50,738 nt of DNA from Candidatus Falkowbacteria bacterium CG10_big_fil_rev_8_21_14_0_10_44_15. Lineage in GTDB: Bacteria; Patescibacteriota; Patescibacteriia; Patescibacteriales; XYC2-FULL-47-12. Under the pieces are notes generated by a model that saw only the letters and a list, made by a program, of their open reading frames with translations, made no database searches and was not told where the DNA came from. Position 1 is the first letter of the stretch. Every line of letters starts with the position of its first letter. A program made the translations under genes and the position numbers. This document shows, one piece after another, positions 3,783 to 31,075 of this stretch. The stretch is taken from NCBI GenBank assembly GCA_002773575.1, contig PFAT01000021.1, forward strand, positions 1 through 50,738, given 5' to 3'.

Positions 3783-6700
3783 ATGAGTAAATTACGAAAA
3801 GTTTTTACTGTCAGCGTCATGCTGATGACGATCCTGTCCATGAGCGTAGTCGTAGCGCCGCAAGCGCAAGCAACGGCGAGCGCCGGCGACCTCATTAAAA
3901 TGTCCGGATTGTCTTCAGTCTATTATTTGGCGGCTGACGGTAAACGTTATGTTTTCCCTAATGAGAATAGTTATTTTTCCTGGTACAGTGATTTTTCCAG
4001 CGTCGTAACCGTTTCCCAGTCCGAACTGGAAAGTTACCCGTTAGGCAAAAATATCACCATGCGGCCAGGCACTAAATTAGTTAAGATTACCACCGACCCC
4101 AAGGTGTACGCCGTGGAAACGAACGGCTCCTTAGTTTGGGTGCCGAGTGAAACGGTTGCCAACACCTTGTATGGCGCTAACTGGGCCAGGAGAATAGTTG
4201 ACGTTCCGGACGCTTTCTTCACTAATTACACGATTGCTACCGGTCAACAGGTGAGCGCAACCGCTTACCCCACGGGGAGTTTGGTAAAGTTCAGCGGCTC
4301 TACTGACGTCTATTATATCGCGAGCGACGGCAAAGCGCAGAAAGTGGAAAGCGCGGCTATGAGCGCCAACCGCTTTAAGACTGCCGATGTCATTACTGCT
4401 CCGGCTTCCGTTACGATGCCAGCCGCAGGCACTCCTATTGCCAGCGCGGTCGCTACTTTAATCGATACCTCTTCTGGCGCGGGCGGAACGGCGGCGGTAG
4501 CTACCGGTTCGGGCGTATCAGTGGCTTTGGCCTCTGACAATCCAGCCGCGGCTACGGTCGTTACCGACACGGCTGACGGCGCCCAATCAATGATTCCGGC
4601 GTTTCGGCTTAACTTTACCGCGGCGGCTGACGGCGATGTGGTCGTTAGAACAGTTAAAATCACCCGTGGCGGCATTTCGGCCGACACCGACGTGGTAAAT
4701 ATGTATTTGCTGGATGGTTCAACGGTCGTTGCCTCTAGCCCGTCAATTTCCACGAAAGTCTTTACCTTTACCAATTCAGCCGGTATATTTACCGTTACGC
4801 GCGGGACTACTAAAGCGATTGACGTTAAATTTGACCTGAAAGGTAACGCCACTGCCGGCATCACCATTAATTTCGCAGTTGCATCAGCTTCTGACATCAC
4901 CACGAGCGGCGCGGCCGTTTCCGGCTCATTCCCAATAACCGGTAACACCTTTACTTCCGCGAGCGTGACTGACTTAGGTAAATTAACACTTACCAACGTC
5001 TCTCCGACCGCGGCCGGTAGTGTTGACCCACAGGACAACTATGAAATTTGGCGCTTCACTGCGGCCGGCTCTTCACAGGACGTTGAATTGCGCAAGATGA
5101 TCTTTACGATTGTCGGCTCGGTCAACGTCGGCGACCTGAAAAACTTCGGTCTCTGGGACGGCGGCACGCAAATTGGCGGCACGGTAGCGGACATGTCTTC
5201 TAGTAAGACAATTACTCTAGACTTATCGTCAGCTCCGTACACGATTGTCAAAGGCGTGACCAAAACTTTGAGCTTAAAAGCTAATATCGTATCCGGCACC
5301 ACCCGAACTTTCCGCGCTTCCATTCAGAACGGCAGCGATTTAAGCATTTATGACAAAGGTTACGGCGTATTATTGCGTCATAACGGCGCGGACAGCTTCA
5401 CGGTACTGCAGCCGGTTGACTCCAATTCGGCGGCAGTAAGCTACACCATTAATTCCGGCTCCCTAACTATGTCTATCGCCCAGGATTCTCCGACTGGAAA
5501 TATCGCTTCTTCCACGACTAACACCACCTTATTAAAAGTGAGCATAAAGGCGTCTGGCGAAGATGTTAAGATTACCAGTTTAACCGTTAACTGCGATAGT
5601 TCGGTAGACACAAAGACCATTAAGAACCTCAAAGTTCTTTGGGATGGTTCACAGGTAGGTTCAGCCATCGCTACCTCGGGAGCTTGCGACGGAGCGGTCA
5701 ACAACGATTATACTTTGGGCAGCACGGTTATCGCTCGCGCCGGCCAGACTCATGTTTTGACGGTGGCGGCGGACATCACCGGCACGACAACTTCCGGAGA
5801 AACTTTAGTGGCTAATCTGGAAGTTGGTTCCAGCAATGCCCAAGGGCTGACCTCATTAACGACATTAAGCACTACCGCCATTACCGGCCGCACCTTAACG
5901 ATTGCCGCCGGCACTTTGACCGTTGTTAAGAATGTCAGTTTCGGCGACGGCAACTCATCTACTCCTACCGGTGTCGCCTACGGCGCCAATACTAAAGTCG
6001 CTTCCTTTACCATTATTGGGGGAGCGGGCGAACCGGCCGAAGTAACCCAAATTTCTTTAGCCGATGTTACCGCTGGCACCAAGTATGTCAGCAAGTACTT
6101 CCAGAACGTTAAATTAATGCACGGCACGACGCAGTTGGGTAATACGCTCGGCAGTCCGTCCAGCGGCGCGGACACAGCGCAGACGCATACCTTTAATATC
6201 TCGCCAGCCGTTACGATTAACTCGGGCGAGCAGTATGTGGTTGATGTGTACGCTGACGTTAAGAGTACTACCTTAACGACCGCGGCCGCGATTATTAAGG
6301 TTTCTTCCGTGACGGCGAGCGGCAAAAATACCGGCACCGCGGCCAGTTATTCCACGGCCGTAACCTTGCAGAGCCAGTACATCGCAACCGCGGGCGGCAT
6401 GACAATCGCGATTGACAGCGATACGCCGTTAGCTACCAACCTCTTAATGGGCGCGACTGACCAGACATTAGGGAAATTCAAGTTTACCGCGAGCTCCAGC
6501 GAATCCATAACCATCACCGAACTGGTTATTAGCGTAAATATTGAAAAAGATTCCGGCGCCACTGGTACGGTGAATAACATCCGCCTGTTTGACGTAAACA
6601 ACGTTCAAATCGGCAGCGCGGTTGCCGGTTTTGATGGCACCTACGCTACTACTACATACGCGCACGCTATCTTTAAGAGTCTGAGTCTGGTTATCCCCAA

Positions 6701-7544
6701 AGGCACAACTAAAGTCATTATCGTCAAGGCGGATCTTAATCCGTATGAGGGCAGCGGTTTGACCACCACTGGACAGGCCATTCAGTTAGCGATTGTGCCG
6801 ACTGACTATGACGCGACCACGAGCGGCAGTCAGTTGCCGATTACCGGCACCGGTTCCCAGTCCGGCCAGTCTATGACGGCTACGACTCTGACCTTTACTT
6901 CTAACGCCGGGTCTATTCCGTATTCTGACCAGACAAGCGCCACTTCCACGCAACTAGCGGCTAATGTTAATGTAGTACGCGCCAATGAAATGGTGCTGTA
7001 TCGCGCTAAATTAATGTTGGCTTGGAACGCGAACACCCCGTCCGGTTTAACTGGCAATAATAGTTCTAAACAGACTATTGCAGTGGTGAATGTTGCTAAT
7101 ACCGCCAACAGCGGCACCTATCCGGCTACTGTTAAAGCGATGAACATTAGCGTGTCAACCACTATTTCTAACGCCGCGGCCACAAATCGCAACTTGACTG
7201 TGTACAAAGATTCAGCTAGTGGCACTGTGTTGGGCACTACTACCTATGTTTCAACAACAATGGCGGTAGCGGGCGACAGCTATACGAACACGAACTTCCT
7301 GGATGGCGATATAACGGATGTAGAAATTTCAGACGGCTCCACCAAGACATTCTTCTTTACCTTAGATACGACGGATGCGGCTACGCAAAAGACATTGTCG
7401 GTTACCATCCCGGCTTATCATTCCGGCAAGTACGGCGCAACAGCTACGAACGGTTCGTATGGTTTAATTTGGTCTGACGGATCAACTACTAATATCATTG
7501 CTATAGATAACATTGATATTGGGTATAAGACATTGACCTACTAA
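3783..7544 (+). CDS. Large secreted cell-surface repeat protein (S-layer-like, probable glycoprotein)
   Basis: 1253 aa. The signal peptide is MSKLRKVFTVSVMLMTILSMSVVVAPQAQA/TAS. There are two N-terminal VYY(L/I)AxDGK...FPN modules. At least 6 degenerate ~100-150-aa beta-rich modules follow, each with a DxP...(F/L)K(F/L)TA...DV...I...L(F/W)DG..Q(I/V)G pattern. The composition is very rich in Thr/Ser/Ala/Gly/Val. An SD (GAAAGGA) lies upstream and a strong terminator downstream. Confidence 0.85.
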   Translation: MSKLRKVFTVSVMLMTILSMSVVVAPQAQATASAGDLIKMSGLSSVYYLAADGKRYVFPNENSYFSWYSDFSSVVTVSQSELESYPLGKNITMRPGTKLVKITTDPKVYAVETNGSLVWVPSETVANTLYGANWARRIVDVPDAFFTNYTIATGQQVSATAYPTGSLVKFSGSTDVYYIASDGKAQKVESAAMSANRFKTADVITAPASVTMPAAGTPIASAVATLIDTSSGAGGTAAVATGSGVSVALASDNPAAATVVTDTADGAQSMIPAFRLNFTAAADGDVVVRTVKITRGGISADTDVVNMYLLDGSTVVASSPSISTKVFTFTNSAGIFTVTRGTTKAIDVKFDLKGNATAGITINFAVASASDITTSGAAVSGSFPITGNTFTSASVTDLGKLTLTNVSPTAAGSVDPQDNYEIWRFTAAGSSQDVELRKMIFTIVGSVNVGDLKNFGLWDGGTQIGGTVADMSSSKTITLDLSSAPYTIVKGVTKTLSLKANIVSGTTRTFRASIQNGSDLSIYDKGYGVLLRHNGADSFTVLQPVDSNSAAVSYTINSGSLTMSIAQDSPTGNIASSTTNTTLLKVSIKASGEDVKITSLTVNCDSSVDTKTIKNLKVLWDGSQVGSAIATSGACDGAVNNDYTLGSTVIARAGQTHVLTVAADITGTTTSGETLVANLEVGSSNAQGLTSLTTLSTTAITGRTLTIAAGTLTVVKNVSFGDGNSSTPTGVAYGANTKVASFTIIGGAGEPAEVTQISLADVTAGTKYVSKYFQNVKLMHGTTQLGNTLGSPSSGADTAQTHTFNISPAVTINSGEQYVVDVYADVKSTTLTTAAAIIKVSSVTASGKNTGTAASYSTAVTLQSQYIATAGGMTIAIDSDTPLATNLLMGATDQTLGKFKFTASSSESITITELVISVNIEKDSGATGTVNNIRLFDVNNVQIGSAVAGFDGTYATTTYAHAIFKSLSLVIPKGTTKVIIVKADLNPYEGSGLTTTGQAIQLAIVPTDYDATTSGSQLPITGTGSQSGQSMTATTLTFTSNAGSIPYSDQTSATSTQLAANVNVVRANEMVLYRAKLMLAWNANTPSGLTGNNSSKQTIAVVNVANTANSGTYPATVKAMNISVSTTISNAAATNRNLTVYKDSASGTVLGTTTYVSTTMAVAGDSYTNTNFLDGDITDVEISDGSTKTFFFTLDTTDAATQKTLSVTIPAYHSGKYGATATNGSYGLIWSDGSTTNIIAIDNIDIGYKTLTY

Positions 7545-7610: not shown

Positions 7611-7650
7611 CCAGTCTCCCGAAGTACTTCGGGAGACTGGATTGTTTTTT
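7611..7650 (+). terminator. Rho-independent terminator
   Basis: CCAGTCTCCCGAAG-TA-CTTCGGGAGACTGG (13-14-bp stem) is followed by ATTGTTTTTT. It lies 67 nt after the surface-protein stop. Confidence 0.85.
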
Positions 7651-7750: not shown

Positions 7751-9985
7751 ATGAAATTTATGCTATTACCAAAAATCATTAAAATCGGTTTATACGCCAT
7801 ATTATTGTTGCCTTTAATAGTTACGCCGTTTACGATGTTTCCCTGGCAGTTCGGCAAAGTTATTTTTTTCCAAATTATTATTGAAATTTTAGCGTTCGTT
7901 TGGCTGGTGTTCTGGTTGCAGACGCCGGGCAGAGTTGAGTTAAGGAAATTAAACCGGTTAGACTGGGCGGTAATAATTTTTTTGGCTATTTTAGTGGTAA
8001 CGGCCGTAACGGGCGTTAATTTTAATAACAGTTTTTTCGGCAACCAGTCGCGGGCGCAAGGAGTAATGCTCTGGCTGCACTTTGGCGTTTTTTATTGGTT
8101 ACTTAAAAGTGCTTGGCGCGAAAAAAATGATTGGCAGCGTTATCTAAAAGCAACGGTAATTATTGCCGTGCTGGTCGGCGTGACGGCGATTTTGCAAAAT
8201 TATTTGCCGGCAACATGGCGGGGAGATTTAGGCCCGCGCCTGTCCGGCATCGTCGGCAATCCAGCTTTTTTAGCCGCTTATATCATACTGCCGGCGTTTA
8301 TTGCTTTGAGTTTAGTTTTTAAATCAAGCCGCGCACTTGAGACTTGGTTTTGGCTCGGCATCGCTCTTTTAGAAGCCGTGATATTATGGGGTACAGGCAT
8401 TAGAGGAGTAATTTTAGGCGCAGGCATAGGGGCTATTAGCGTATTGGCGATGGCTATATTTATATTAAATAAAAAACAACGATTAACGGCGGTTATTATT
8501 TTAGCGGCATTGCTCTTTACGGGCGCAACGACAATAATGCTCGCCCGCCTGCCTAAAGCGCAGGAGAAAGTCCCGTTTTTAACCGGGATAGCCAATATTC
8601 AAAATATTACTCAAGCCAGTACGGCGCAGACGCGTTTAATGGCTTGGCAGATAGCTGGGCAAGGATTTAAGAATTATCCGTTGTTCGGCATAGGAATGGG
8701 CAACTACGAAGTTATTTTTAACCAATACTATAATCCCGAACTTCTGCGCTACGGATTTAAAGAAACGATTTGGGATAAGCCGCACAATTGGCTGCTGGAA
8801 CTCGCGGTGAGCGCGGGGATATTCGGCGTATTAGCGTATTTAGCGGTATACGCGGCAGCGGTACAGGCGCTGGTGCGCAAAGCGCGGCAAGAAATAACTT
8901 CTAAAGATAAATGGGCGCAAATTATTTTAGCCGGCGGGCTACTCGCGTACTTTATCCAAAATTTATTTTTATTTGAAACATTTAACGCGCTTCTGATATT
9001 TTTTATTATTTTAGCTTTTATTTCCGGCAGGATATTTTCAGAAACATCAACTGATAAAATTTTGTCTAAAAAATCTAAATTCGCTTCGCTGATTTTAACC
9101 GGCGTTGGCGCGCTAATTTTATTTTTACTTTATCAATACAATTATCTGCCTTTGCGCGCTTCTTACTATTTAGCTTTGTCCGAAAACGCCGGCCGCTACC
9201 AAAATTCTCCCGCCGCTTGGGCAACCAATGCGCAGCTTTCTTTGCGAACCCCTTCTTATTTAAAATTAGAAAGCGCGGTGTTGGCCGCCTCCACTCTGGA
9301 TACCATGAGCAAGAAAAACATTATTAAAGACGGCCAAGACATTAAGGAAGCGGCGTTGATGTTGACGTCAATACTTGCGGACGGAGCAAAAAAATATCCG
9401 CAAAATTATATTTATCCGGTTTGGGCCGGGCAGGCGTATTTAGTTTTAGGAGAGTATGTGGACGCGGCTTACTTTGAACAGGGGCGGGAGTTTTTGGAGC
9501 AGGCAAGGCAAATTGCTCCCCGCAAACAGGAAGTGTACTTTTTATTAGGGCAGGCATATCTGTATCAACAAAACGCTGCGGCAGCAAAGGATATTTTGCA
9601 GGCAGCGGTGGCAATCAGCCCTGATTTAGGGCAACCGCATTGGTTTTTAGGTTTAGCGTATGAAGCGGCCGGCGAGCGGCTGAAAGCTCTGCCGGAATTA
9701 AAACAAGGTCTGCGGCTTGAGCCGGATTTACAAACCGAGCAAAATATCTTATATTTAATAGACATTTTGGCTGAAGCCAAAGATTATGCCACTATCCTTG
9801 ATTACTACAAATTATTGAGCCAGCGGCAACCAAATGAAGGATATTGGCACGCGAAACTGGCGGCGACTTACCTTGCCCAAGGAGATAAAGCAATGGCGTT
9901 AACAGAAATTATTACCGCCGCTGAGTTAGATATGCGTTTGCAGGCGGAGGCGCAAAAATTCATCCGAGACAATAATTTAAAATAA
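7751..9985 (+). CDS. O-antigen ligase (Wzy_C)-like polytopic membrane protein with C-terminal TPR domain
   Basis: 744 aa with more than 10 TM helices. Wzy_C hallmarks are TRLMAWQIAGQGFKNYPLFGIGMGNY and WDKPHNWLLELAVSAGIFG. The C-terminal ~250 aa are TPR-like (WAGQAYLVLGEY..., HWFLGLAYEAAGE...). Confidence 0.8.
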   Translation: MKFMLLPKIIKIGLYAILLLPLIVTPFTMFPWQFGKVIFFQIIIEILAFVWLVFWLQTPGRVELRKLNRLDWAVIIFLAILVVTAVTGVNFNNSFFGNQSRAQGVMLWLHFGVFYWLLKSAWREKNDWQRYLKATVIIAVLVGVTAILQNYLPATWRGDLGPRLSGIVGNPAFLAAYIILPAFIALSLVFKSSRALETWFWLGIALLEAVILWGTGIRGVILGAGIGAISVLAMAIFILNKKQRLTAVIILAALLFTGATTIMLARLPKAQEKVPFLTGIANIQNITQASTAQTRLMAWQIAGQGFKNYPLFGIGMGNYEVIFNQYYNPELLRYGFKETIWDKPHNWLLELAVSAGIFGVLAYLAVYAAAVQALVRKARQEITSKDKWAQIILAGGLLAYFIQNLFLFETFNALLIFFIILAFISGRIFSETSTDKILSKKSKFASLILTGVGALILFLLYQYNYLPLRASYYLALSENAGRYQNSPAAWATNAQLSLRTPSYLKLESAVLAASTLDTMSKKNIIKDGQDIKEAALMLTSILADGAKKYPQNYIYPVWAGQAYLVLGEYVDAAYFEQGREFLEQARQIAPRKQEVYFLLGQAYLYQQNAAAAKDILQAAVAISPDLGQPHWFLGLAYEAAGERLKALPELKQGLRLEPDLQTEQNILYLIDILAEAKDYATILDYYKLLSQRQPNEGYWHAKLAATYLAQGDKAMALTEIITAAELDMRLQAEAQKFIRDNNLK

Positions 9986-13065: not shown

Positions 13066-14232
13066 TTAACGGCTATACAAATTGGCTGTTTTTTTTATCA
13101 TAGTCTGTAAGCCGTATTTAGCGATTACTTGTTTATTAGCCTCAACTCCTATTTGTTTACTAACGGACGAACGGTTTAGGGCGTAACTTAATTTATCCGC
13201 TAAAGCGGCGGCGTTGCCGGACTTAACCAACAGCCCGGTTTGGCCATCGGTAATTATTTCCGGAATGGCGCCGACGGGTGTCGCCACAATCGGCAAACCC
13301 GCTTGCATCGCTTCCAAGATGGAATAGGGCAGGCCTTCTTTAACGGAAGAACAGACATAAATATCAAAAGCCGGCAGAAGTTGAGCGGCGTCGCCAATTG
13401 AACCCGTTAGAATTATTTTATTTTGTAATTCGCAATTGTTAATTCGTAATTGCAAATTGTTTTGTTCAGGGCCGGAGCCAATGATAATTAACTTAATATT
13501 GGATATTGGATATTGCCTGCCTGCCGGCGAGGCAGGGATATTGGATATTTTTATTGCTTCAATAAGATACTCGTAGCCCTTATTTTTGTATAGATTGCCG
13601 ATAGAGCCGATAAGTATCGTTTGGTCGTCAATTGGCGCGCCAGTTATTTTTGCCAGTCGCGCGCGCGCTTCCGGCCGTGATAAAAAGTCCATGGGCGCGA
13701 TGCCGTTGTAAATGACGCTTATTTTTTTTGCGGGCGCAATTTGACGCCGCACAGTATTTTGTTTTTCAAATTCAGAAAGGCAAATTATGTTAGTTTTTAA
13801 TTTTGCCGTCCATTTTTCCAATAGCAAGTAAAAGGTTTTTTTCCGCCAAGGCAGATTTTCATTAAACACCCAGCCGTGCACCGTATAGATTATTTTTGGC
13901 ACTTGACACCACCACGCGGCCAGCGAGCCGAGAATGCTGATTTTAGAGCTGTTTAAATGGACAATGTCCGGCTTTTCTGTCTGAATTAAATGTACAATTT
14001 GCCAAAAAGCTGACCAATCATGCCAAGGGGAAATAGCCCGTTTTAAGCGTGAGAGCGGTAGATAGCGAATGCCGGACTTATTGAGTTTTTTTGCCAATTC
14101 TCCCTCATAACCTTGCCCACCACTGGCGACTACAATAGTAAAATTTTCGCTAAGGTTAGTAGCTAAATCGTAGACATATCGTTGCGCTCCGCCAAAGTCT
14201 GATTGGGTGACAAGGTAAAGTATTTTTAACAT
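13066..14232 (-). CDS. GT4-family (GT-B) glycosyltransferase
   Basis: 388 aa. The N-terminus reads MLKILYLVTQSDFGGAQRYV. The C-domain has GNLYKNKGYEYL...IIIGSGPE...SSVKEGLPYSILEAMQAGLPIVATPVGAIPEII (EX7E region). It carries two repeat arrays. Confidence 0.85.
   Translation of the reverse strand: MLKILYLVTQSDFGGAQRYVYDLATNLSENFTIVVASGGQGYEGELAKKLNKSGIRYLPLSRLKRAISPWHDWSAFWQIVHLIQTEKPDIVHLNSSKISILGSLAAWWCQVPKIIYTVHGWVFNENLPWRKKTFYLLLEKWTAKLKTNIICLSEFEKQNTVRRQIAPAKKISVIYNGIAPMDFLSRPEARARLAKITGAPIDDQTILIGSIGNLYKNKGYEYLIEAIKISNIPASPAGRQYPISNIKLIIIGSGPEQNNLQLRINNCELQNKIILTGSIGDAAQLLPAFDIYVCSSVKEGLPYSILEAMQAGLPIVATPVGAIPEIITDGQTGLLVKSGNAAALADKLSYALNRSSVSKQIGVEANKQVIAKYGLQTMIKKTANLYSR
13418..13459 (-). 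repeat. In-frame heptamer array (coding sense CAATTTG CAATTAC GAATTAA CAATTGC GAATTAC AAAATAA)
   Basis: 6 x 7 nt = 42 nt. It encodes NLQLRINNCELQNK at the position of the usual ..L..ELGI.D.V.F.G helix/loop. Confidence 0.8.
13496..13551 (-). repeat. In-frame heptamer array interrupted by a 21-nt GC-rich palindrome
   Basis: On the plus strand the units read ATATTGG ATATTGG ATATTGC | CTGCCTG CCGGCGA GGCAGGG | ATATTGG ATATTTT. A hairpin CCTGCC-GGCGA-GGCAGG lies at 13520-13536. The array encodes KISNIPASPAGRQYPISNIK. Confidence 0.8.
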
Positions 14233-16249: not shown

Positions 16250-17173
16250 ATGAAAATATTAATAACCGGCGGCGCGGGGTTTATCGGCTCTCATCTGTGC
16301 GAAAAGCTATTGGAGCAAGGGCACGCCGTCGTTTGTTTGGATAATTTTTTTACCGGCTCCAAAGATAATGTTAAGCATTTATTAGCTGATGAAAATTTTA
16401 AAGTGGCTGAACAAGACGTAGAGAGTCCGTATGATTTCGCCGTTGACCAAATTTATAATTTAGCTTGTCCGGCGGCGCCGATTTGGTATCAAAAAGATCC
16501 GGTAAAAACCGTGCGGACAAACGTGTTAGGCGCGATTAACGCTTTGGAATTAGCTAAGCGCATCGGCTGCCCGATGCTGCATACTTCCACCTCGGAGGTA
16601 TACGGCGACCCCGCAGTGCATCCGCAGCCGGAAAGTTACTGGGGCAACGTGAATCCCATTGGCGTGCGCGCCTGCTACGACGAAGGTAAACGTTGCGCCG
16701 AAACTTTATGTTTTGATTATTACCGCGAACATCAGGTCGGCATAAAAGTAGTCAGGATTTTTAACACTTACGGACCGCGGATGGCGATAGCCGACGGACG
16801 GGTAGTTTCTAATTTTATTATTCAAGCGCTGCGCGGCGAAGCCATTACTATTTACGGCCGGGGCGAACAAACGAGAAGCTTTTGTTATGTTGCTGATATG
16901 GTTGAGGGATTAATCAAAATGATGGCCAGCAGTTTTAGCGGGCCGGTTAATTTAGGCAACCCGGCTGAATTTAGCGTTCGGGAGCTGGCGGCTAAAATAT
17001 TAAAGTTAACGAACTCGCGCTCCCAAATTATCTGCCAGGATTTACCTGCCGATGACCCAAAGCAGAGGCAGCCCGATATTAATTTAGCTAAAGAAAAATT
17101 AAATTGGGATCCAGAAGTTAATTTGGATGATGGTTTAATAAAAACTATTGAATATTTCAGAGGTATTTTATGA
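16250..17173 (+). CDS. uxs: UDP-glucuronate decarboxylase (UDP-xylose synthase)-like SDR
   Basis: [84 protein letters not shown] and [10 protein letters not shown] form the characteristic UXS signature. Confidence 0.85.
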
Positions 17174-18303
17174 GAATTTTAATTTTGGCTACTGCTTATA
17201 TCCCTCATGTCGGCGGCGCGGAAGTGGCGGTTAAAGAAATAACTAAGCGGCTGGAACGCCAGTTTGAAATGATTACGGTGCGGCTGAAAAAAGCGGATGC
17301 GGCTGAAGAACAGGTAGGCAACATCAAAGTTTATCGTTTGGGTTTTGGCTTAGGCAGAATTGACAAATACTTTTTTCCTTTCCGGGCGGCTCGGCTCGCA
17401 AATAAATTGCACCGGCAAAATCATTACGATGTCGTTTGGTCAATTATGGCGAGCTGGTCCGGCTTTGCCGCTTTATTTTTTTGCAAAAACAGCAGCGTTA
17501 AATTTTTGCTGACTTTGCAGGAAGGGGATGATTTGCGCGTGCCAGTGAGGAAATCTCTGATGGTACATCATTGGTTTAAACAAATTTTTCAACGCGCTGA
17601 TTACATCCAATGCATTTCCAGCTATTTAGCCGATTGGGCGAAAAAAATGGGAGCGACCTGTCCGATAGAGGTAGTGCCGAATGGAGTGGACCTGGAAAAA
17701 TATCAAATATCAAATATCAAATATCAAACAAATCACAAATCACAAAATCAAAATTCAAAAATTATTCTCACTACCTCGCGTTTAGTGCAAAAAAATGGAA
17801 TAGTAGATTTAATAGAAGCTACTGCGTTACTCATTACCCATTACTCATCACCCGTTACTTTAGTAATCTGTGGCGATGGCGAGGAAAGAAAGAAGTTAGA
17901 AGTTAAAAGTAAGCAGTTAGGCATTGCCGATGAAGTAAAATTTATGGGTTTTGTAAAGCCGGAAGAATTGCCAAAATTTTACGCGATTGCCGATGTATTC
18001 TGCCGGCCGTCTCTTTCCGAAGGGTTAGGCAACTCTTTTTTGGAAGCGATGGCCGCGGGCGTGCCGGTAGTGGCAACGCCGGTCGGCGGCATCCCTGATT
18101 TTTTACGGGACGGCAAGACCGGCTGGTTTTGTAGAGTTAATGACCCGGCAAGCATTGCGGAAAAAATAAAATATATTTTGGATGAACAAAATAAAGCAGA
18201 AGCGCAGAAAGTAATAAATAACGCGAAGCAAATGGTTTTAGACAAATACGATTGGGATGGCATTGCCGGTCAAATGGAAAATATTTTTAAGGCACTTAAA
18301 TGA
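17170..18303 (+). CDS. GT4-family glycosyltransferase
   Basis: 377 aa with an ATGA overlap with the upstream gene. Motifs are [14 protein letters not shown] and [33 protein letters not shown]. It carries two repeat arrays. Confidence 0.85.
17701..17763 (+). repeat. In-frame heptamer array (TATCAAA)x4 CAAATCA CAAATCA CAAAATC AAAATTC AAAAATT
   Basis: 9 x 7 = 63 nt = 21 codons. It encodes [21 protein letters not shown] in the GT-B interdomain linker between VPNGVD and the SRL..KG motif. Confidence 0.85.
17827..17861 (+). repeat. In-frame heptamer array TTACTCA TTACCCA TTACTCA TCACCCG TTACTTT
   Basis: Encodes [12 protein letters not shown] just before the beta-strand VICGDGEE. It is related to the TTACCCG array at 20641. 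Confidence 0.7.
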
Positions 18304-19946
18304 ATACGGCTATCAAAATTTATCAATTTTTAAAGAAATGTTTTAAACGTTTCGCGCCCCGCCGCGTAAGTTTGCTGGTAGAACAATACAAAATTGGCAT
18401 CAAATATGTTATTTCCGGCGGCACCGCCGCCGTGGTTGATTTAGGTTTATTGTTTTTGTTAACGGAAATTGCGGGCATATGGTATTTACTGTCGGCAGTG
18501 ATGGCTTTTATTTGTTCTCTGGTTATCGCTTTTTTACTGCACAAATTCTGGACTTTTCGCGAGAGCTCCCTGCACCGAATAAAAAAACAGTTTATTTTTT
18601 TCACTTCAATTGCGTTGCTTAATTTAGGATTAAATACCTTACTCCTCTATGTTGCCGTTGATGTTTTAAACATCTGGTATATGGCAGCCCAATTTGTGAT
18701 TATGGGCGCGCTCGCCTTTATGAATTTTGTCATCAACAAAACAGTTACCTTTCGGCGCGAAAACAAGGACGGCAACAATATTTTAATCGCGACCGGCATC
18801 TATCCGCCCGACATCGGCGGACCGGCGACATACACTAAAATATTGAGCGAGGAACTGCCTAAACTGGGGTGGGAAGTTAAAGTTGTCACTTATAGCGATG
18901 GAGACATTAAAACATTAAAACATAAAAACATAAAAACAAACGATGCGGCAGTTTTTCAAATCAGCAGAAAACAGCATATTTTTTTACGTTATTTTCAATA
19001 TTTTTGGCAAGTTTTGAAATTATTAAATTGGGCGAATATTGTTTACGCCCAAGGCCCGGTGAGCGAGGGATTGCCAACATATTGGGCGTGCAAATTGCGC
19101 GGACGAAAATATGTTTTAAAAATAGTTGGCGACTATGCTTGGGAGCAAATGCAAGTATCAAGAAAACAAGAAAACCAGAAAACAGAAAAGCAAGGATTTA
19201 TTTCATTAGATGAATTTCAAAATAAAAAATTTGATGCGCGGACGGAACGAAAGAGGCGAATTGAAAAATTGGTTGCCCGCAACGCAGATAAAGTTATTGT
19301 ACCGAGCCAGTATTTAAAAAAAATTGTTAAGGGATGGGGCGTGCCGGAAAATAAAATTAACGTTATTTACAATGCGGTTGAATTTAAATCAATCCCGCCC
19401 GTACTTAAGCCTGCAAATGAAAGATGGCTGGTATCTGTCGGCCGGCTCGTGCCTTGGAAAGGCATGGACGCGCTGATTGATATTATGCCGTCGCTAGTGC
19501 GGTCAGAACCAGCCTTAAAATTGATCATTATCGGCGAGGGGCCGGAACAAGAGCAATTAAAAATTAAAAGTGAAAAATTAAAAATTGAAGGACAAATCAG
19601 AATGCTGGGTCGGTTGGAACACGAGCAGACTTTAGCATATATTAAAGCGGCGGATGTGTTGGTGCTTAATACCGGCTATGAAGGGCTATCGCATCTGTTG
19701 CTGGAAGCGTTGCATCTGGGCGTTCCGGTTGTGACGACTAATGTCGGCGGCAATCCGGAAGTGATTCAAAATGGCATTAATGGGTTGTTGGTGGAATATA
19801 ATAATCAAACACAACTTAAAGAAGCGATTTTGCGTTTACTTAATTCGCAGGAATTAGCGCGCAAGTTTGTATTAGCCGGCAGACAAGATTTAACTAAATT
19901 TAGCCAAAAAAAAATGATTGCAGACGCCATAGCGGTAATAAATTAA
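18300..19946 (+). CDS. GtrA-like 4-TM domain fused to a GT4 glycosyltransferase
   Basis: The N-terminal ~150 aa read YVISGGTAAVVDLGLLFLLTEIAGIWYLLSAVMAFICSLVIAFLLHKFWTFR plus two more TM helices (GtrA family pattern). The remainder is GT-B: ILIATGIYPPDIGGPATY, GRLVPWKG, GYEGLSHLLLEALHLGVPVVTTNVGGNPEV. It carries three repeat arrays. Confidence 0.8.
   Translation: MNTAIKIYQFLKKCFKRFAPRRVSLLVEQYKIGIKYVISGGTAAVVDLGLLFLLTEIAGIWYLLSAVMAFICSLVIAFLLHKFWTFRESSLHRIKKQFIFFTSIALLNLGLNTLLLYVAVDVLNIWYMAAQFVIMGALAFMNFVINKTVTFRRENKDGNNILIATGIYPPDIGGPATYTKILSEELPKLGWEVKVVTYSDGDIKTLKHKNIKTNDAAVFQISRKQHIFLRYFQYFWQVLKLLNWANIVYAQGPVSEGLPTYWACKLRGRKYVLKIVGDYAWEQMQVSRKQENQKTEKQGFISLDEFQNKKFDARTERKRRIEKLVARNADKVIVPSQYLKKIVKGWGVPENKINVIYNAVEFKSIPPVLKPANERWLVSVGRLVPWKGMDALIDIMPSLVRSEPALKLIIIGEGPEQEQLKIKSEKLKIEGQIRMLGRLEHEQTLAYIKAADVLVLNTGYEGLSHLLLEALHLGVPVVTTNVGGNPEVIQNGINGLLVEYNNQTQLKEAILRLLNSQELARKFVLAGRQDLTKFSQKKMIADAIAVIN
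18904..18943 (+). repeat. In-frame octamer array ACATTAAA ACATTAAA ACATAAAA ACATAAAA ACAAACGA
   Basis: Encodes (D)IKTLKHKNIKTND. Unit 3 is the one read in the phase where T5-A6-A7 would be a TAA codon, and it has T5->A. Confidence 0.8.
19159..19198 (+). repeat. In-frame octamer array CAAGAAAA CAAGAAAA CCAGAAAA CAGAAAAG CAAGGATT
   Basis: Encodes SRKQENQKTEKQG. It shares CCAGAA with the intergenic array at 7692-7707. Confidence 0.75.
19555..19596 (+). repeat. In-frame heptamer array AATTAAA AATTAAA AGTGAAA AATTAAA AATTGAA GGACAAA
   Basis: Encodes QLKIKSEKLKIEGQ at the ELGI..V.F.G position. Units 3 and 6, which are read in the TAA-generating phase, are the ones that deviate at T4. Confidence 0.8.
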
Positions 19947-19951
19947 TTTTG

Positions 19952-21034
19952 ATGAAAATTCTAAGCATCAGTTTGGATAAAAACATACTAGACAAAGATT
20001 CAGCCGCGGCCAAACGGATGGTTGAATATGGAAATTTGGTTGAACGATATACGATATTAGTTTTGGCGGATAGAGACCAAGAATTTGGTTTATCAGACAA
20101 AGTTAAAGTTATTGCCATCCGAAAAAGCAATAAATTTTTTAGCTTATTAAAATTAAAAAGGAGAGCCGCAGAGGTTTTAAATTCTGAAAACTATAACATC
20201 ATCACCGTACAAGATGCATACTTCATCGGTTTGATAGCGCTAAAATTAGCAAAAAAATTCCATCTCGGCTTAGAGGCGCAGGTGCACGGATTTGAAAAAT
20301 TCAGCGGCGCAAGAAAGTTGCTGGCCAAAAAAGTTTTGCGAAATGCAGATGCAGTGCGGGTCGTCAGCCAAAGATTAAAGCGTCAGCTAATTAGCGATTT
20401 TGGTGTAGCAGAAAGAAAAATAACGGTAGTGCCTATCTATTCAGAGCATAGAACATGTAACACGCAACACATAACATATACAAATGATAAATTTATTTTT
20501 TTGACGGTTGGGAGATTAGTGCCGGTGAAAAATGTTTCCTTGCAAATTAAGGCGATGCGACATATTGTAAAACAATTTCCACAGGCAGAACTATGGATTG
20601 TCGGCGATGGCGAGCAAAGGCAGGCATTAGAGGAATTGTGTTACCCGTTACCCGTTACCCGTTACGTGAAGTTTTTTGGCTGGCAGGAAAATGTGGAGAA
20701 ATTTTATCGGCAAGCCGATGTGTTTTTACTTACTTCCAACAGCGAAGGTTGGGGGTTAGCCGTGGTTGAGGCGGCGGCGCAGGGTTTGCCTATAATTATG
20801 ACTGGTGTCGGACTAGCTGGGGAGGTTATAAAAGACAAAGAAAGCGGAATCGTAATTCCGGTTGGCGACCAAAAAGAATTAGAAAAGGCAATGGCAGTAT
20901 TAACAGAAGATCAAGAATTAAGGGAGAAGCTGGGTAGGAACGCGGCAGAAGTAGTGAAAAAATTTCCGAGTAAAGAGGAGACATTAGCGCTGTATAAAAA
21001 ATCATGGCAGACGGCCGTAGATAATAAAATATGA
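19952..21034 (+). CDS. GT4-family glycosyltransferase
   Basis: The start is taken at ATG 19952 (MKILSISLDKN); the track start at 19949 is TTG. Motifs are GRLVPVKN and TSNSEGWGLAVVEAAAQGLPIIMTGVGLAGEVI. It carries two repeat arrays. Confidence 0.8.
   Translation: MKILSISLDKNILDKDSAAAKRMVEYGNLVERYTILVLADRDQEFGLSDKVKVIAIRKSNKFFSLLKLKRRAAEVLNSENYNIITVQDAYFIGLIALKLAKKFHLGLEAQVHGFEKFSGARKLLAKKVLRNADAVRVVSQRLKRQLISDFGVAERKITVVPIYSEHRTCNTQHITYTNDKFIFLTVGRLVPVKNVSLQIKAMRHIVKQFPQAELWIVGDGEQRQALEELCYPLPVTRYVKFFGWQENVEKFYRQADVFLLTSNSEGWGLAVVEAAAQGLPIIMTGVGLAGEVIKDKESGIVIPVGDQKELEKAMAVLTEDQELREKLGRNAAEVVKKFPSKEETLALYKKSWQTAVDNKI
20450..20491 (+). repeat. In-frame heptamer array AGAACAT GTAACAC GCAACAC ATAACAT ATACAAA TGATAAA
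   Basis: Encodes RTCNTQHITYTNDK in the interdomain linker before FIFLTVGRL. Unit 3 has C rather than T at the position that would otherwise create an in-frame TAA. Confidence 0.7.
20641..20668 (+). repeat. Perfect heptamer array (TTACCCG)x3 + TTACGTG
   Basis: Encodes (C)YPLPVTRYV at the ELGI..V.F.G position. The unit has no stop in any phase. Confidence 0.85.
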
Positions 21035-22644: not shown

Positions 22645-23700
22645 ATGAAATTATTGATTATTACCCAAAAAGTTGATAGCGATGACGACGTACTGGGATT
22701 TATGCATGCTTGGATTTCGGAGTTTGCCAAAGCATGCGAACGGGTGACGGTTATCTGTCTGCAGCAAGGGAAATATCATTTCCCGGAGAATGTTAAGGTT
22801 TTATCTTTAGGCAAAGAAACCGGCAAGTCACGGCTAAAGTACCTGTTTAATTTTTATCGATACATTTGGCAGGAGCGGAAAAATTACGAGGCGGCGTTCG
22901 TGCACATGAATGAAGTGTACGTTATGTTAGGGTGGCTTGGCTGGAAATTGGGGCGTAAAAAGATAAGTTTGTGGTACGCGCACGGGCATGTTTCTTTCAG
23001 CCTGAAAATAGCCGCCAAGTTGGCTGATGTTATTTTTACTTCAACCAAAAGCGGCTTTCGTCTGCCGAGCAAAAAAGTGCGGGTCATCGGGCAAGGAATA
23101 GACGCCAATAAATTTCAAATTAAAAATTACGAATTACGAATTAATGATAAATTTAAAATTGTTTCAGTGGGGAGAATTTCACCGTCCAAAGATTACGCCA
23201 CTTTAATTAACGCCACTGCCATTTTGACTAAAGAATATGCGGGGATAGAAGTCAATATTATTGGCGGTCCGGCTACTGCCGCTGACCAAAACTACTTAAA
23301 GGAGACGCGGCAATCGGTTAAAGATAAAAATTTAGGGCAGATAATAAAATTTATCGGCCCCGTAGCTAATAAAAATTTGGTTTCTTATCTGCAAGCAGCC
23401 GACCTGTTCGTTAACATGAGCCGTACCGGCAGTTTGGACAAAGCGATGCTGGAAGCGGCTGCGTGCGGCTTGCCCATACTGACCTGCAATGAGGCGATGC
23501 CGGAAGTATTAGGCCCTTATACAGATAAACTGATGTATGAGACAGGCAATAGCCGGCAGTTGACTGATAAGATAAAAAGTTGCATTATGTGGGGAGAGAA
23601 AGAAAGGCGACGCCTTGGCTATGAGCTGCGTAAGATAGTAGTGCAAAAGCACAGTTTGCCGGAATTTATAAAAAAAATATTATCCATTTTAAACAATTAA
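22645..23700 (+). CDS. GT4-like (GT-B) glycosyltransferase
   Basis: 351 aa. Motifs are GQGID, VGRISPSKD and SRTGSLDKAMLEAAACGLPILTCN. It carries one repeat array in the interdomain linker. Confidence 0.75.
   Translation: MKLLIITQKVDSDDDVLGFMHAWISEFAKACERVTVICLQQGKYHFPENVKVLSLGKETGKSRLKYLFNFYRYIWQERKNYEAAFVHMNEVYVMLGWLGWKLGRKKISLWYAHGHVSFSLKIAAKLADVIFTSTKSGFRLPSKKVRVIGQGIDANKFQIKNYELRINDKFKIVSVGRISPSKDYATLINATAILTKEYAGIEVNIIGGPATAADQNYLKETRQSVKDKNLGQIIKFIGPVANKNLVSYLQAADLFVNMSRTGSLDKAMLEAAACGLPILTCNEAMPEVLGPYTDKLMYETGNSRQLTDKIKSCIMWGEKERRRLGYELRKIVVQKHSLPEFIKKILSILNN
23111..23152 (+). repeat. In-frame heptamer array AATTTCA AATTAAA AATTACG AATTACG AATTAAT GATAAAT
   Basis: Encodes KFQIKNYELRINDK. 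Units 3 and 6, in the TAA-risk phase, read TAC and AAA instead. Confidence 0.8.
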
Positions 23701-29188: not shown

Positions 29189-31075
29189 ATGTGCGGCATC
29201 GCCGGTTATTTTGGCAGCGGCAGCCAAGAAATTTTAGCAAAGATGACAAACGCACTTCGCCATCGCGGACCCGATGACGAAGGTTTTTATTTAGACGGCC
29301 AAGTCGGGTTAGGGCACCGGCGGCTTTCTATTATTGACTTATCTCCCGCCGGGCATCAGCCCATGAGTAACGACGGCCAAGACATCTGGCTGGTTTTTAA
29401 CGGCGAGATTTATAATTTTAGGGAATTGCGACAGGAACTTATTAGTCAGGGCTATAAATTTAAAAGTAATTCCGACACCGAAGTCATTATTAATTTATAC
29501 GCAGCCATTGGCGTTGAGGCATTCAAAAAATTAAACGGCATGTTCGCGGCCGCTTTATACGACGCGCGCCAAGATAAGCTGATTTTAGCGCGCGACCGCT
29601 TAGGCAAAAAGCCGCTGTATTGGGGAATTTTTGGCGCTACTTTAATTTTTGGCTCGGAGTTAAAGGCATTACTGCAACATCCTGATTGCCGGCGGGAGAT
29701 TAACTTAGAATCATTAAATAAATACTTGCTTTATGAATATGTGCCGACGCCGCGTTCAATTTTCAAAGGCATTCATAAATTAGAGCCGGGGCATTATTTA
29801 TCTTATGACGGCCGAAAAGTTGTTAAAACAAAATTTTGGGAAATAACCTTTAAATTACCAATTACCAATTACCAATTACGAATTCAGGAGGTGATGAATG
29901 AGCTGGGGAATAAAATTAATGCGGCGGTAAAGGCGCGGTTAGTGAGCGACGTGCCCTTGGGGATTTTTTTAAGCGGCGGCATTGACAGTTCAACGATTGC
30001 TTACTACGCGCAGCAAAACAGCGTTAAGCCAATAAAAACTTTTTCCATCGGCTTTAAAGAAGACAGCTTTGACGAATCAAAATACGCCCGCTTAGCCGCC
30101 AAACATTTAGGCGCCGAGCATTATGAAAAAATATTAAGCGCTAAAGATTCTTTGGATTTAATCCCGCGCATCGCTGATTTATTGGATGAGCCTCTCGGAG
30201 ACGCTTCAATACTGCCGACCTATTTATTGTCTGAATTTACCAAAGAAAAAGTAACGGTCGCTTTGGGCGGGGACGGCGGCGACGAATTATTTTGCGGCTA
30301 TGATACTTTTCCGGCGGAAAAATTCGCGGCAATTTACGAAAAAATTCCGTTAATTATTAGAAGACAAATAATTGAAAGAGTAGCTCTTAACTTGCCTGTT
30401 TCTTTTAAAAATATCAGTTTTGATTTTAAACTAAAAAAATTTATCGCCGGTGGCGGAGAAAAAAACATCCGGCGGCGCCACGCAAGTTGGCTTGGCTCTT
30501 TTAGCCGCGAGCGGCGCGCGCAGCTTTTTACCCCCGAAGTCTGGCGTGAACTGCAAGCAGTTAACGAATACGAAGAGCTGGATGCTTATGAAGCAAACGT
30601 CAGGGAGCAGCCCGACTGGAATAAGTTGATTTATGCTTATTTGAGAACATATCTAATGGATGATATACTGGTAAAAGTTGACCGCGCGAGCATGGGCAAC
30701 GCGCTGGAGGTGCGGGCGCCTTTTTTGGATTTTTCCGTCGTTGATTTCGTTAACAGCCTCCCGTTTGAGTTTAAAATGAAAGGTTTAATTACTAAGTTTA
30801 TTTTGAAAGAACTGATGAAAGATAAACTGCCGATAGCAATTGTCAATCGCCAGAAGAAAGGTTTTGGCATTCCGCTGGCGCAATGGCTGACGGCAGATTT
30901 GCGGCCGCTGCTGGATGAATTATTATCGGAAGGTTATCTACGGCGACAAGGTTTGTTTAATTCCGTTTTTGTTTCTAAATTAGTCAAAGACCATATTGAG
31001 CGCCGGGCGGATAATAGAAAGCCGCTTTGGACTCTGCTTTGTTTTCAGTTGTGGCAGAAAAGGTGGTTAAAATAA
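29189..31075 (+). CDS. asnB: Asparagine synthase (glutamine-hydrolysing) family amidotransferase
   Basis: MCGIAGYFG (Ntn Cys2), HRGPDD, SGGIDSS (PP-loop), 628 aa. In glycan clusters this family usually amidates uronic acids (WbpS-like role; inference). Confidence 0.9.
   Translation: MCGIAGYFGSGSQEILAKMTNALRHRGPDDEGFYLDGQVGLGHRRLSIIDLSPAGHQPMSNDGQDIWLVFNGEIYNFRELRQELISQGYKFKSNSDTEVIINLYAAIGVEAFKKLNGMFAAALYDARQDKLILARDRLGKKPLYWGIFGATLIFGSELKALLQHPDCRREINLESLNKYLLYEYVPTPRSIFKGIHKLEPGHYLSYDGRKVVKTKFWEITFKLPITNYQLRIQEVMNELGNKINAAVKARLVSDVPLGIFLSGGIDSSTIAYYAQQNSVKPIKTFSIGFKEDSFDESKYARLAAKHLGAEHYEKILSAKDSLDLIPRIADLLDEPLGDASILPTYLLSEFTKEKVTVALGGDGGDELFCGYDTFPAEKFAAIYEKIPLIIRRQIIERVALNLPVSFKNISFDFKLKKFIAGGGEKNIRRRHASWLGSFSRERRAQLFTPEVWRELQAVNEYEELDAYEANVREQPDWNKLIYAYLRTYLMDDILVKVDRASMGNALEVRAPFLDFSVVDFVNSLPFEFKMKGLITKFILKELMKDKLPIAIVNRQKKGFGIPLAQWLTADLRPLLDELLSEGYLRRQGLFNSVFVSKLVKDHIERRADNRKPLWTLLCFQLWQKRWLK
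29853..29887 (+). repeat. In-frame heptamer array (AATTACC)x3 AATTACG AATTCAG
   Basis: Encodes LPITNYQLRIQ in the linker between the glutaminase and synthetase domains. It belongs to the same AATTACG family as the arrays at 23111 and 13418. Confidence 0.85.

Follow-up and report, generated by a model that had tools for sequence, protein, structure and literature searches.

A 21-nucleotide palindromic insert in a Falkowbacteria glycosyltransferase gene is probably a copy of a very small, dispersed insertion element

Contig PFAT01000021.1 of Candidatus Falkowbacteria bacterium CG10_big_fil_rev_8_21_14_0_10_44_15, analysed here over its full 50,738 nucleotides (nt) and referred to as the window, carries a gene for a family 4 glycosyltransferase (GT4-1) in which a tandem array of heptamers is interrupted by a 21-nt GC-rich palindromic insert, here called X. 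X probably represents a palindromic insertion element, very small and non-autonomous, of a family with CCTGCCTGCCGGCAGGCAGG as its core, that was put into single-stranded or structured DNA. Comparison of alleles shows that, on the most parsimonious reading, X entered a pre-existing (ATATCCA)n array in a loop of the glycosyltransferase, where exactly 21 nt were added at a C^C step without target duplication. Comparison across genomes likewise shows X to have been added in this manner in many other genomes and to belong to a dispersed family of 20-22-nt palindromes with a strand-asymmetric preference for heptamer arrays, hairpin loops and C^C steps. X thus appears to rank among the smallest known mobile DNA elements.

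Anatomy of the insert and its host gene

GT4-1 (13066-14232, minus strand) encodes a 388-residue protein with a Glyco_transf_4 N-terminal domain (PF13439, 8e-26) and a Glycos_transf_1 C-terminal domain (PF00534, 2.2e-36), and its closest named relative is a hypothetical protein of Candidatus Falkowbacteria RIFCSPLOWO2_12_FULL_45_10 with 91% identity. The plus strand at 13496-13551 reads ATATTGG ATATTGG ATATTG[CCTGCCTGCCGGCGAGGCAGG]G ATATTGG ATATTTT, the bracketed block being X, and the coding strand reads AAA ATATCCA ATATC[CCTGCCTCGCCGGCAGGCAGG]CA ATATCCA ATATCCA ATATT AAG, which is translated as KISNI-PASPAGR-QYPISNIK. X occupies 13516-13536 (or 13515-13535, given a 1-nt ambiguity) on the minus strand and supplies PASPAGR, residues 233-239. 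The low-coordinate side of the array (13496-13515) holds two ATATTGG units and ATATTG (ATATCCA units in the coding sense), and the high-coordinate side (13537-13551) holds the G that is the seventh base of the split unit, then ATATTGG and ATATTTT, both sides likewise being assigned to the minus strand.

The initial annotation of this DNA, made from its letters alone, described a GC-rich palindrome that splits an ATATTGG array inside a GT4 gene and encodes ISNI-PASPAGRQ-YPISNIK on the minus strand, and both the window sequence and its translation bear this out. The 21-nt length given there for the three-unit block is also right, whereas its position has to be moved: the true indel is 13516-13536, one base to the left of 13517-13537, so that the apparent unit ATATTGC is ATATTG plus the first C of the insert. 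The proposed hairpin exists as well, and is better drawn with a 7-bp stem, CCTGCCT/AGGCAGG, and a 7-nt loop (7+7+7) than as CCTGCC-GGCGA-GGCAGG.

X is a perfect 20-nt palindrome, (CCTG)2CCGG(CAGG)2, with one extra C. Its 21 nt equal seven codons and three heptamer units, and none of its six reading frames contains a stop codon. As single-stranded DNA the insert folds at -5.9/-6.8 kcal/mol, values equalled by 18 and 8 of 200 GC-matched shuffles, and the hairpin energy alone is only modestly unusual; the site without X gives -0.4 kcal/mol, that is, no fold. Extension of the hairpin into the flanks of X showed no excess over chance. The 17-mer core of X occurs a single time in the window, against 0.04 expected.

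An AlphaFold2 model of GT4-1, built on a 30-sequence alignment, shows a two-Rossmann-domain fold with a mean pLDDT (predicted local distance difference test score) of 87.6, and its sole segment below 50 comprises residues 233-241. PASPAGR lies between a helix (218-229) and a strand (246-251) of the C-terminal Rossmann domain, in a hypervariable loop that differs in length and sequence among all 30 orthologues. The model therefore places the X-derived peptide in what is predicted to be a disordered surface loop. The GT4-1 gene was not found among transcripts in any RNA run.

Filled and empty alleles of GT4-1

Among the 30 aligned orthologues, P0002 and P0003 contain PASPAGR, and P0004 and P0005 are exactly seven residues shorter, reading KISNI-QYPISNIK. 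In the DNA of the two empty loci, L006 and L008, exactly 21 nt are missing as one clean gap with 1 nt of boundary ambiguity, which leaves an uninterrupted array of (ATATCCA)x4 + ATATT, or 4.7 units. About 120 nt around the site are otherwise identical between filled and empty alleles, and the whole genes are 87.5% identical. An empty site among orthologues, which the initial annotation had envisaged, thus exists. Its description of the element as flanked by direct repeats has to be amended: these repeats belong to the pre-existing array, whose count of heptamer units does not change when X is added, so that there is no target-site duplication. A 7-nt target duplication was considered as the source of the flanking repeats and rejected on the same equality of unit number, and also because most copies of X elsewhere are unflanked.

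X is present at L001-L005, L007, L128 and L129. Five contigs that were assembled independently, from ENA and JGI samples, match the window perfectly or almost so and contain it, as do the NCBI metagenome-assembled genome (MAG) and two more JGI contigs. Several runs also have it in their Logan contigs, from strains 96-97% identical. The runs that contain the window are groundwater and soil metagenomes. The 21 nt are unchanged in strains down to 93% gene identity, and the alleles without X are intact genes. A metagenome scan for every length variant of the array or insert at this site returned two contigs only, both filled, and no indel was seen in the Logan contigs, which break at the arrays and in which copy number is unreadable. 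Judged from these alignments, X at the GT4-1 site is a real insertion that has been stably inherited in its lineage.

The GT4-1 alleles are also mosaic. P0003-P0005 share the N-terminal two thirds with P0001 and P0002 and have a clearly different C-terminal third, and P0003 combines that different third with the PASPAGR insert. This pattern suggests recombination between lineages.

Dispersal of the 21-mer across bacteria

The exact 21-mer was sought in 596 Gb of sequence with one genome per species, and was found in at least 119 stretches of species-representative genomes, where about 0.3 would be expected by chance; the copy statistics that follow (118, 119 or 124 copies) refer to the matches listed. 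The initial annotation had raised the prospect of the palindrome in other genomes and contexts, and these exact copies are indeed both genic and intergenic. According to the record titles, hosts from the Candidate Phyla Radiation (CPR) among the matches listed are Yanofsky-, Roizman-, Curtiss-, Magasanik-, Campbell-, Levy-, Gottesman-, Morani-, Andersen- and Falkowbacteria, Saccharibacteria, WWE3, Paceibacterota and Peribacteria. The Bacteroidota among the matches include eight cultured isolates (Arenibacter, Zunongwangia, Aequorivita, Maribacter, Flavivirga, Gelidibacter, Dokdonia and a Cyclobacteriaceae strain), and the other hosts include Ignavibacteria, Elusimicrobia, Omnitrophota, Planctomycetota, Acidobacteriota and MAGs labelled Gammaproteobacteria. 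None of the matches listed bears a cyanobacterial label. Some copies lie in long-read assemblies, in isolate genomes and in records titled complete chromosomes.

The flanks of these copies are AT-rich and unrelated between loci, with no shared homology beyond 1-2 nt. In the groundwater and soil metagenomes that contain the window, contig depth reaches 1200-3000x at X compared with 5-20x for the surrounding gene, and in each sample dozens of other contigs match only X and a little flank. About 30 further family members were found in the 857 kb of DNA fetched around the 119 listed matches, namely 12 copies of the perfect 20-mer and variants of 21-22 nt in which the extra base lies at another position; this amounts to roughly one member per 30 kb, a rough density from loci chosen for carrying a copy. 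The idea that 20-mers are non-coding and 21-mers genic was tested on this set, and 6 of the 12 20-mers, a small number, lie in long open frames. At L113 an inverted pair of X copies was considered as the two ends of an element and rejected, as the pair is part of an inverted duplication of 360 nt that surrounds ordinary genes, and no transposase is present there.

Genomic contexts and target preferences

At least 150 residues are encoded by the open reading frames (ORFs) that hold 69 of 124 listed copies; 34 of the 124 are clearly non-coding. Genic copies are read as PASPAGR in 22 cases, as LPAGEAG in 23 and in the other four frames together in 24, and the orientation of X relative to the gene is unbiased (36 versus 33). 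The host genes that were checked are mutually unrelated and encode a PNPase, RecO, a SpoU methylase, WecG/TagA, a DUF6090 protein and another GT4, the last with X in the same loop as in GT4-1. Alignment of the X-bearing PNPase with PDB 4am3 gives a clean seven-residue gap opposite PASPAGR, and X is an addition relative to all solved PNPases. DUF6090-type ORFs of Flavobacteriia (L015 5338, L059 2812, L069 6327) carry X at the same codon position (..K[PASPAGR]Y..AIGEI..) with diverged flanking DNA, which marks either a hot spot or an old insert with 21 conserved nucleotides.

Most listed copies have no flanking repeat. In 20 of 118 distinct copies the 7 bases before and after X agree with at most one mismatch, against 0.46 expected, and a period of 14 is found in 7 against 0.04 expected; at periods 6, 8-13, 15 and 16 the counts (0-2 copies each) do not exceed those of shuffled controls. 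This indicates that X is specifically associated with heptamer arrays. The reconstituted empty junction is C^C in 39 of 119 copies (6.4 expected), and the base that follows X is a pyrimidine in 106 of 119. Beyond these preferences at the flanking positions (C/A at -1, C/T at +1) there is no conserved tetranucleotide. When the 14-nt flanks are read in the orientation of X, they are C-rich and G-poor, by 77 loci to 25, an asymmetry that points to strand specificity.

Structure is also enriched at the targets. Reconstructed empty sites form more stable folds than do control windows taken from those loci, with a minimum free energy of -8 kcal/mol or lower in 26% versus 11% (Mann-Whitney p = 0.015), and X often lies within or next to the loop of a larger hairpin. 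At L042 a 20-mer is nested in the loop of a 21-mer. In a Chitinophagaceae MAG (L021, 1245-1307) X and, after it, two tandem variants of 21 nt (CCTGCCTTGCCGGTAGGCAGG) lie within a 620-codon open frame, from which it follows that the element can form 21-nt tandem arrays encoding PA(S/L)P(A/V)GR repeats. A Moraniibacteriota MAG (L052) has an X-heptamer-X arrangement. A 798-residue LigA-like ORF of this MAG, spanning 1331-1351, contains X in the frame LPRRQAG, two variants (LPDRQA and LPTGQAG) parted by a TTTCTTG heptamer, and also a heptamer-derived FPISNFQFP stretch. In Flavobacteriaceae, six loci (L044, L061, L117, L127, L024 and L055) have X inside another dispersed palindrome (ACGCTTTCGCGAAAGCGT), at differing offsets from its centre.

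Further filled and empty alleles come from an endonuclease-Q-like gene of Roizmanbacteria. There, L018 reads AATTTC[X]CAATTTCCAATTTCC and L133 reads AATTTCCAATTTCCAATTTCC, with the same geometry as in the window and an unchanged number of units. The same gene in L134 carries a further 21-nt derivative, made up of the 20-mer and one additional A, within an 8-nt array that is uninterrupted in L135, and L136 has a decayed copy in an ATATCAA array. These alleles indicate that one variable loop gained family members at least three times independently, each time in a 7- or 8-nt array. In all three filled/empty pairs now available (window/L007 versus L006/L008, L018 versus L133, and L134 versus L135) the difference is exactly 21 nt, and no boundary is ambiguous by more than 1 nt.

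Heptamer arrays and slippage in a neighbouring gene

The window contains six exact period-7 arrays of at least 2.5 units, compared with none in shuffled sequences. All are in ORFs, at linker or loop positions of GT4 genes and of an asparagine synthase. The 857 kb around the X-bearing loci hold 42 period-7 arrays, against 5 of period 8 and 2 of period 9. In the window and in the other X-bearing genomes alike, no repeat period is enriched nearly as strongly as 7. The second glycosyltransferase gene of the window, GT4-2 (17170-18303, plus strand, 377 residues), has three heptamer arrays at linker or loop positions (17698, 17827 and 17891), of which the first is an uninterrupted AAATATC array of 4.4 units (17698-17728, plus strand) with polymorphic copy number. 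It had been pointed out in the initial annotation that a heptamer differing by one base, in the gene at 17701 on the opposite strand, also encodes ISNI, and translation agrees.

L001 is 99.99% identical to the window over 21 kb, and the one indel that separates them is the absence from L001 of two AAATATC units (14 nt, 17715-17728). This change from four to two units shifts the frame of GT4-2, with a stop at codon 241, so that GT4-2 looks like a phase-variable surface-glycan gene in a CPR bacterium. No frame-switching change of copy number was observed in the X-interrupted array of GT4-1 among close relatives and run contigs. The (AAATATC)n motif is itself present on dozens of other contigs in the same metagenomes.

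Comparison with known systems

In kind, the closest known elements are the small dispersed repeats (SDRs, 21-27 nt) of heterocystous cyanobacteria, Nostoc and its relatives, which the initial annotation does not mention. Elhai and colleagues are said to have defined SDR1-8 in 2008, of 21-27 nt, and to have proposed them as the smallest mobile elements. SDRs reportedly often occur in tandem heptameric or other small repeats, are nested in their own copies and have hairpin potential. Their insertion is said to have been shown by comparison of orthologous loci, with no encoded protein and by a mechanism reported as unknown, and they are reportedly confined to one coherent cyanobacterial subgroup. 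The 2008 study is cited in PMC3116915 (reference 43) and PMC2884548 (reference 29). X resembles them in its length class (21 nt, with variants of 20-22), in its hairpin potential and in its at least 119 dispersed copies. Residence in heptamer arrays (the 20 of 118 copies above) and inside larger palindromic repeats, nested (L042) and tandem (L021, L052) copies, and presence or absence at orthologous loci in three filled/empty pairs are further likenesses. Unlike SDRs, X has an identical sequence in CPR/Patescibacteria, Bacteroidota and other phyla and is often in frame inside protein-coding genes. Relative to the work on SDRs, then, the host range, the identity of one 21-mer across phyla and the frequent in-frame residence in conserved genes appear to be new.

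Rickettsia palindromic elements (RPEs) are roughly 100-150 bp long and specific to Rickettsia; they are palindromic, lie in frame and are tolerated in surface-exposed parts of proteins. X shares with them the palindrome in frame in protein-coding genes, and differs in its 21 nt and in its hosts. Short GC-rich palindromic insertions in AT-rich genomes are also known as yeast mitochondrial GC clusters and Magnusiomyces 'byp' elements, which occur within coding sequence too; they are organellar and 27-55 nt long, and byps are skipped by the ribosome. X is comparable as a short GC-rich palindromic insert that enters coding sequence among other places, but unlike byps it has a length that is a multiple of three, has no stop codon and is presumably translated. 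The GT4 arrays themselves resemble simple-sequence contingency loci and the short tandemly repeated repetitive sequences of cyanobacteria, being in-ORF heptamers (not a multiple of three) in surface-polysaccharide genes, and GT4-2 resembles a contingency locus further in its two-unit frameshifting slip between near-identical strains. In contrast to such loci, the arrays here are short (3-5 units), the slip is known from a strain comparison, and X is an interruption rather than a repeat.

Repetitive extragenic palindromes (REPs) and REPINs are short (20-40 nt), GC-rich, imperfect palindromes that are extragenic, high in copy number and lineage-specific (PMC3116915; PMC3733652). They bear a GTAG or CGTC tag, occur with a gene for a REP-associated tyrosine transposase (RAYT) and are thought to be moved in trans via single-stranded hairpins, with no target duplication (PMC3116915; PMC3733652). 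X is similar in being a short, GC-rich, dispersed palindrome that inserts with no target duplication. It differs in having no conserved flanking tetranucleotide, in being mostly intragenic and in crossing phyla, and no RAYT was seen in the 8-kb stretches around copies, in which no systematic co-occurrence analysis was made. Miniature inverted-repeat transposable elements (MITEs) measure about 50-500 bp, have terminal inverted repeats bordered by a target-site duplication and share their ends with an autonomous insertion sequence; X is distinguished from them by its 21 nt and by the absence of target-site duplication in the three filled/empty pairs. The view put forward in the initial annotation, of a palindromic, mobile, in-frame element in a tolerant loop, is therefore retained, whereas membership of the RPEs, REPs/REPINs or MITEs is not, on account of the size, the missing target duplication, the missing GTAG/CGTC tag and the non-extragenic location. 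Literature searches gave no match to the 21-mer, to the 20-mer and 17-mer cores or to the peptides, and topic searches yielded reviews of REPs, MITEs and simple-sequence repeats.

Weighing of explanations

In the explanation favoured here, insertion would be directed to transiently single-stranded or structured DNA, that is, to slipped heptamer arrays, to hairpin loops and to the loop of the element itself, and it would be strand-specific, carried out by an activity not yet named. Selection would then leave those genic copies that have a length of 21 nt and no stops, mostly in the frames PASPAGR and LPAGEAG with their small, flexible residues, and in tolerant, disordered loops. Interruptions of repeat tracts stabilise them. 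X cuts a slippage-prone array of 4.7 units into 1.7 and 2.9 units, and for this reason a lower rate of frameshifting would be expected in GT4-1.

Several observations weigh against this explanation. The window holds one copy of X only. At the GT4-1 site no polymorphism for the presence of X was seen within the runs examined, and strains 96-97% identical are all filled. The polarity of the GT4-1 event rests on parsimony, in that a deletion restoring the perfect heptamer register would be improbable and the parallel filled/empty pairs point the same way; more distant orthologues have unrelated sequence in the loop and are of no use as an outgroup. No transposase, RAYT-like gene, reverse transcriptase or other partner was identified in the 8-kb stretches, again short of a systematic co-occurrence analysis, and a longer element bounded by halves of X finds no trace in the 857 kb, where isolated halves are essentially absent. 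X is nearly absent from viral contigs, with only three exact 21-mer matches, all in GC-rich DNA and probably unrelated, and PLSDB plasmids and GenBank phages contain no exact copy, so that there is no evident vector. An identical 21-mer across phyla is hard to reconcile with a non-autonomous element, and requires frequent horizontal transfer or a common template. At L052 a tRNA-Met gene (6058-6130) has beside it, at 5966-6030, a degenerate copy of itself, where the 20-mer CCTGCCTGCCGGCAGGCAGG stands in place of 19 nt from the D arm to the anticodon loop; this looks like a replacement and not a pure insertion. Lastly, the array-stabilising effect of X is one that we infer.

The main rival is templated copying, by which X would be copied from another X locus in replication or repair (through template switching or annealing of short fragments at microhomologies) and would be favoured where DNA slips or folds. 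We regard it as unlikely, and the data do not separate it from a dedicated enzyme. The absence of target duplication with a junction ambiguity of only 1 nt, a C^C junction whose match to the terminal C of X constitutes microhomology, the association with slippage-prone arrays and hairpins, the replacement in the L052 pseudo-tRNA and the want of a partner gene are all in its favour, but flank homology of at most 1-2 nt between copies offers very little for annealing, more than 100 copies have the same sharp boundaries, and the arrival of a first copy in a new phylum is left unexplained. It is likewise unlikely, and slightly more so, that X is kept for a function of its own, as an interrupter that locks a phase-variable glycosyltransferase ON, as a structure that pauses polymerase or recruits a recombinase, or as a useful peptide. 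X has been inherited unchanged down to 93% gene identity next to a gene whose uninterrupted array slips, and 7-bp arms around a 7-nt spacer match a recombinase core site in geometry; the balanced gene orientation, however, argues against a strand-specific RNA role, the host genes are unrelated, the peptide lies in a region modelled with very low confidence, and alleles without X are intact genes.

It is improbable that X is ancestral in the GT4-1 lineage and was precisely deleted from that of L006/L008, for instance by hairpin-mediated slippage, which would make the empty site secondary. Hairpins between direct repeats are known deletion hot spots, P0003 pairs an L006-type C-terminus with the insert in keeping with mosaic alleles, and the outgroups are uninformative. 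A deletion would nevertheless have had to restore the heptamer register with a 1-nt repeat as its only guide, and this 21-mer likewise counts as an addition in two other filled/empty pairs and when set against all solved PNPases. An artefact of sequencing, assembly or contamination is barely conceivable: tandem repeats and palindromes are hard to sequence and assemble, yet one and the same allele recurs in five independent assemblies, in the NCBI MAG and, for several runs, in Logan contigs, long ORFs stay open across the insert, copies exist in isolate genomes and records titled complete chromosomes, and alleles with and without X differ consistently by lineage.

An extension of the insertion-element explanation, which is speculative and which we consider doubtful as it stands, is that the CCTGCCTGCCGGCAGGCAGG family represents a pan-bacterial class of ultra-small mobile DNA, in which dedicated machinery or a shared nucleic-acid template writes the same 20-21 nt into looped-out single strands, such as slipped heptamer arrays and hairpin loops, of distant phyla. 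Heptamer arrays and these palindromes would then both arise from a single process, by which protein loops and surface-polysaccharide genes of CPR bacteria and Bacteroidota are continually remodelled.

Implications

If X is mobile, the little-studied 'very small mobile repeated elements' reach beyond one cyanobacterial subgroup, into the CPR/Patescibacteria, the Bacteroidota and other phyla. The identity of the 21-mer across these phyla raises the question of what moves or writes 21 nt without target duplication. Exact copies in cultivable Flavobacteriia (Dokdonia, Zunongwangia, Aequorivita, Maribacter, Gelidibacter, Flavivirga and Arenibacter) make this experimentally testable. For annotation, the element accounts for odd peptides such as PASPAGR, LPAGEAG and LPAGRQ, which uncultured bacteria have in housekeeping and envelope proteins and which should be read as element-derived sequence and not as protein motifs. 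Also, X and the heptamer slip in GT4-2 together point to surface glycan variation driven by simple sequences in CPR bacteria, which insertions may modulate.

Other features of the window

GT4-1 contains a second, degenerate heptamer array of AATTACG-type units at 13427-13455 on the minus strand (Tandem Repeats Finder rows 13418-13461), which encodes LQLRINNCELQ. Contig depth in metagenomes spikes to 200-490x at this array, which indicates that the AATTACG-type motif is itself dispersed. A further GT4 gene (19949-21034) has a GTTACCC array of 3.7 units at 20640-20665 on the plus strand. Counting these two, in-ORF heptamer arrays lie, at linker or loop positions, at 13418-13461, 17827-17859, 17891-17920, 19555-19586, 20640-20665, 23110-23143 (also given as 23125-23143) and 29853-29884. 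The in-ORF units include AATTACG, TTACCCA, AGAAGTT, AATTAAA, GTTACCC and AATTACC, and the peptides derived from them include LPITNYQLRI, CYPLPVTRY and IKNYELRIN. Two arrays of 8-nt units, of about 4.4 units each, occur in a GtrA-GT4 fusion gene (18300-19946, plus strand), at 18904-18938 (ACATAAAA) and 19159-19194 (CAAGAAAA).

No Rfam family and no tRNA was found anywhere in the window. A plus-strand ORF of 1253 residues at 3783-7544, for which no Pfam match is recorded, sits in a region with a GC content of 51-53%, compared with about 42% in the rest of the window. Between this ORF and the one at 7751-9985 lies a perfect 30-nt palindrome (7611-7640, CCAGTCTCCCGAAGTACTTCGGGAGACTGG) followed by a T-run, which is probably an intrinsic terminator.

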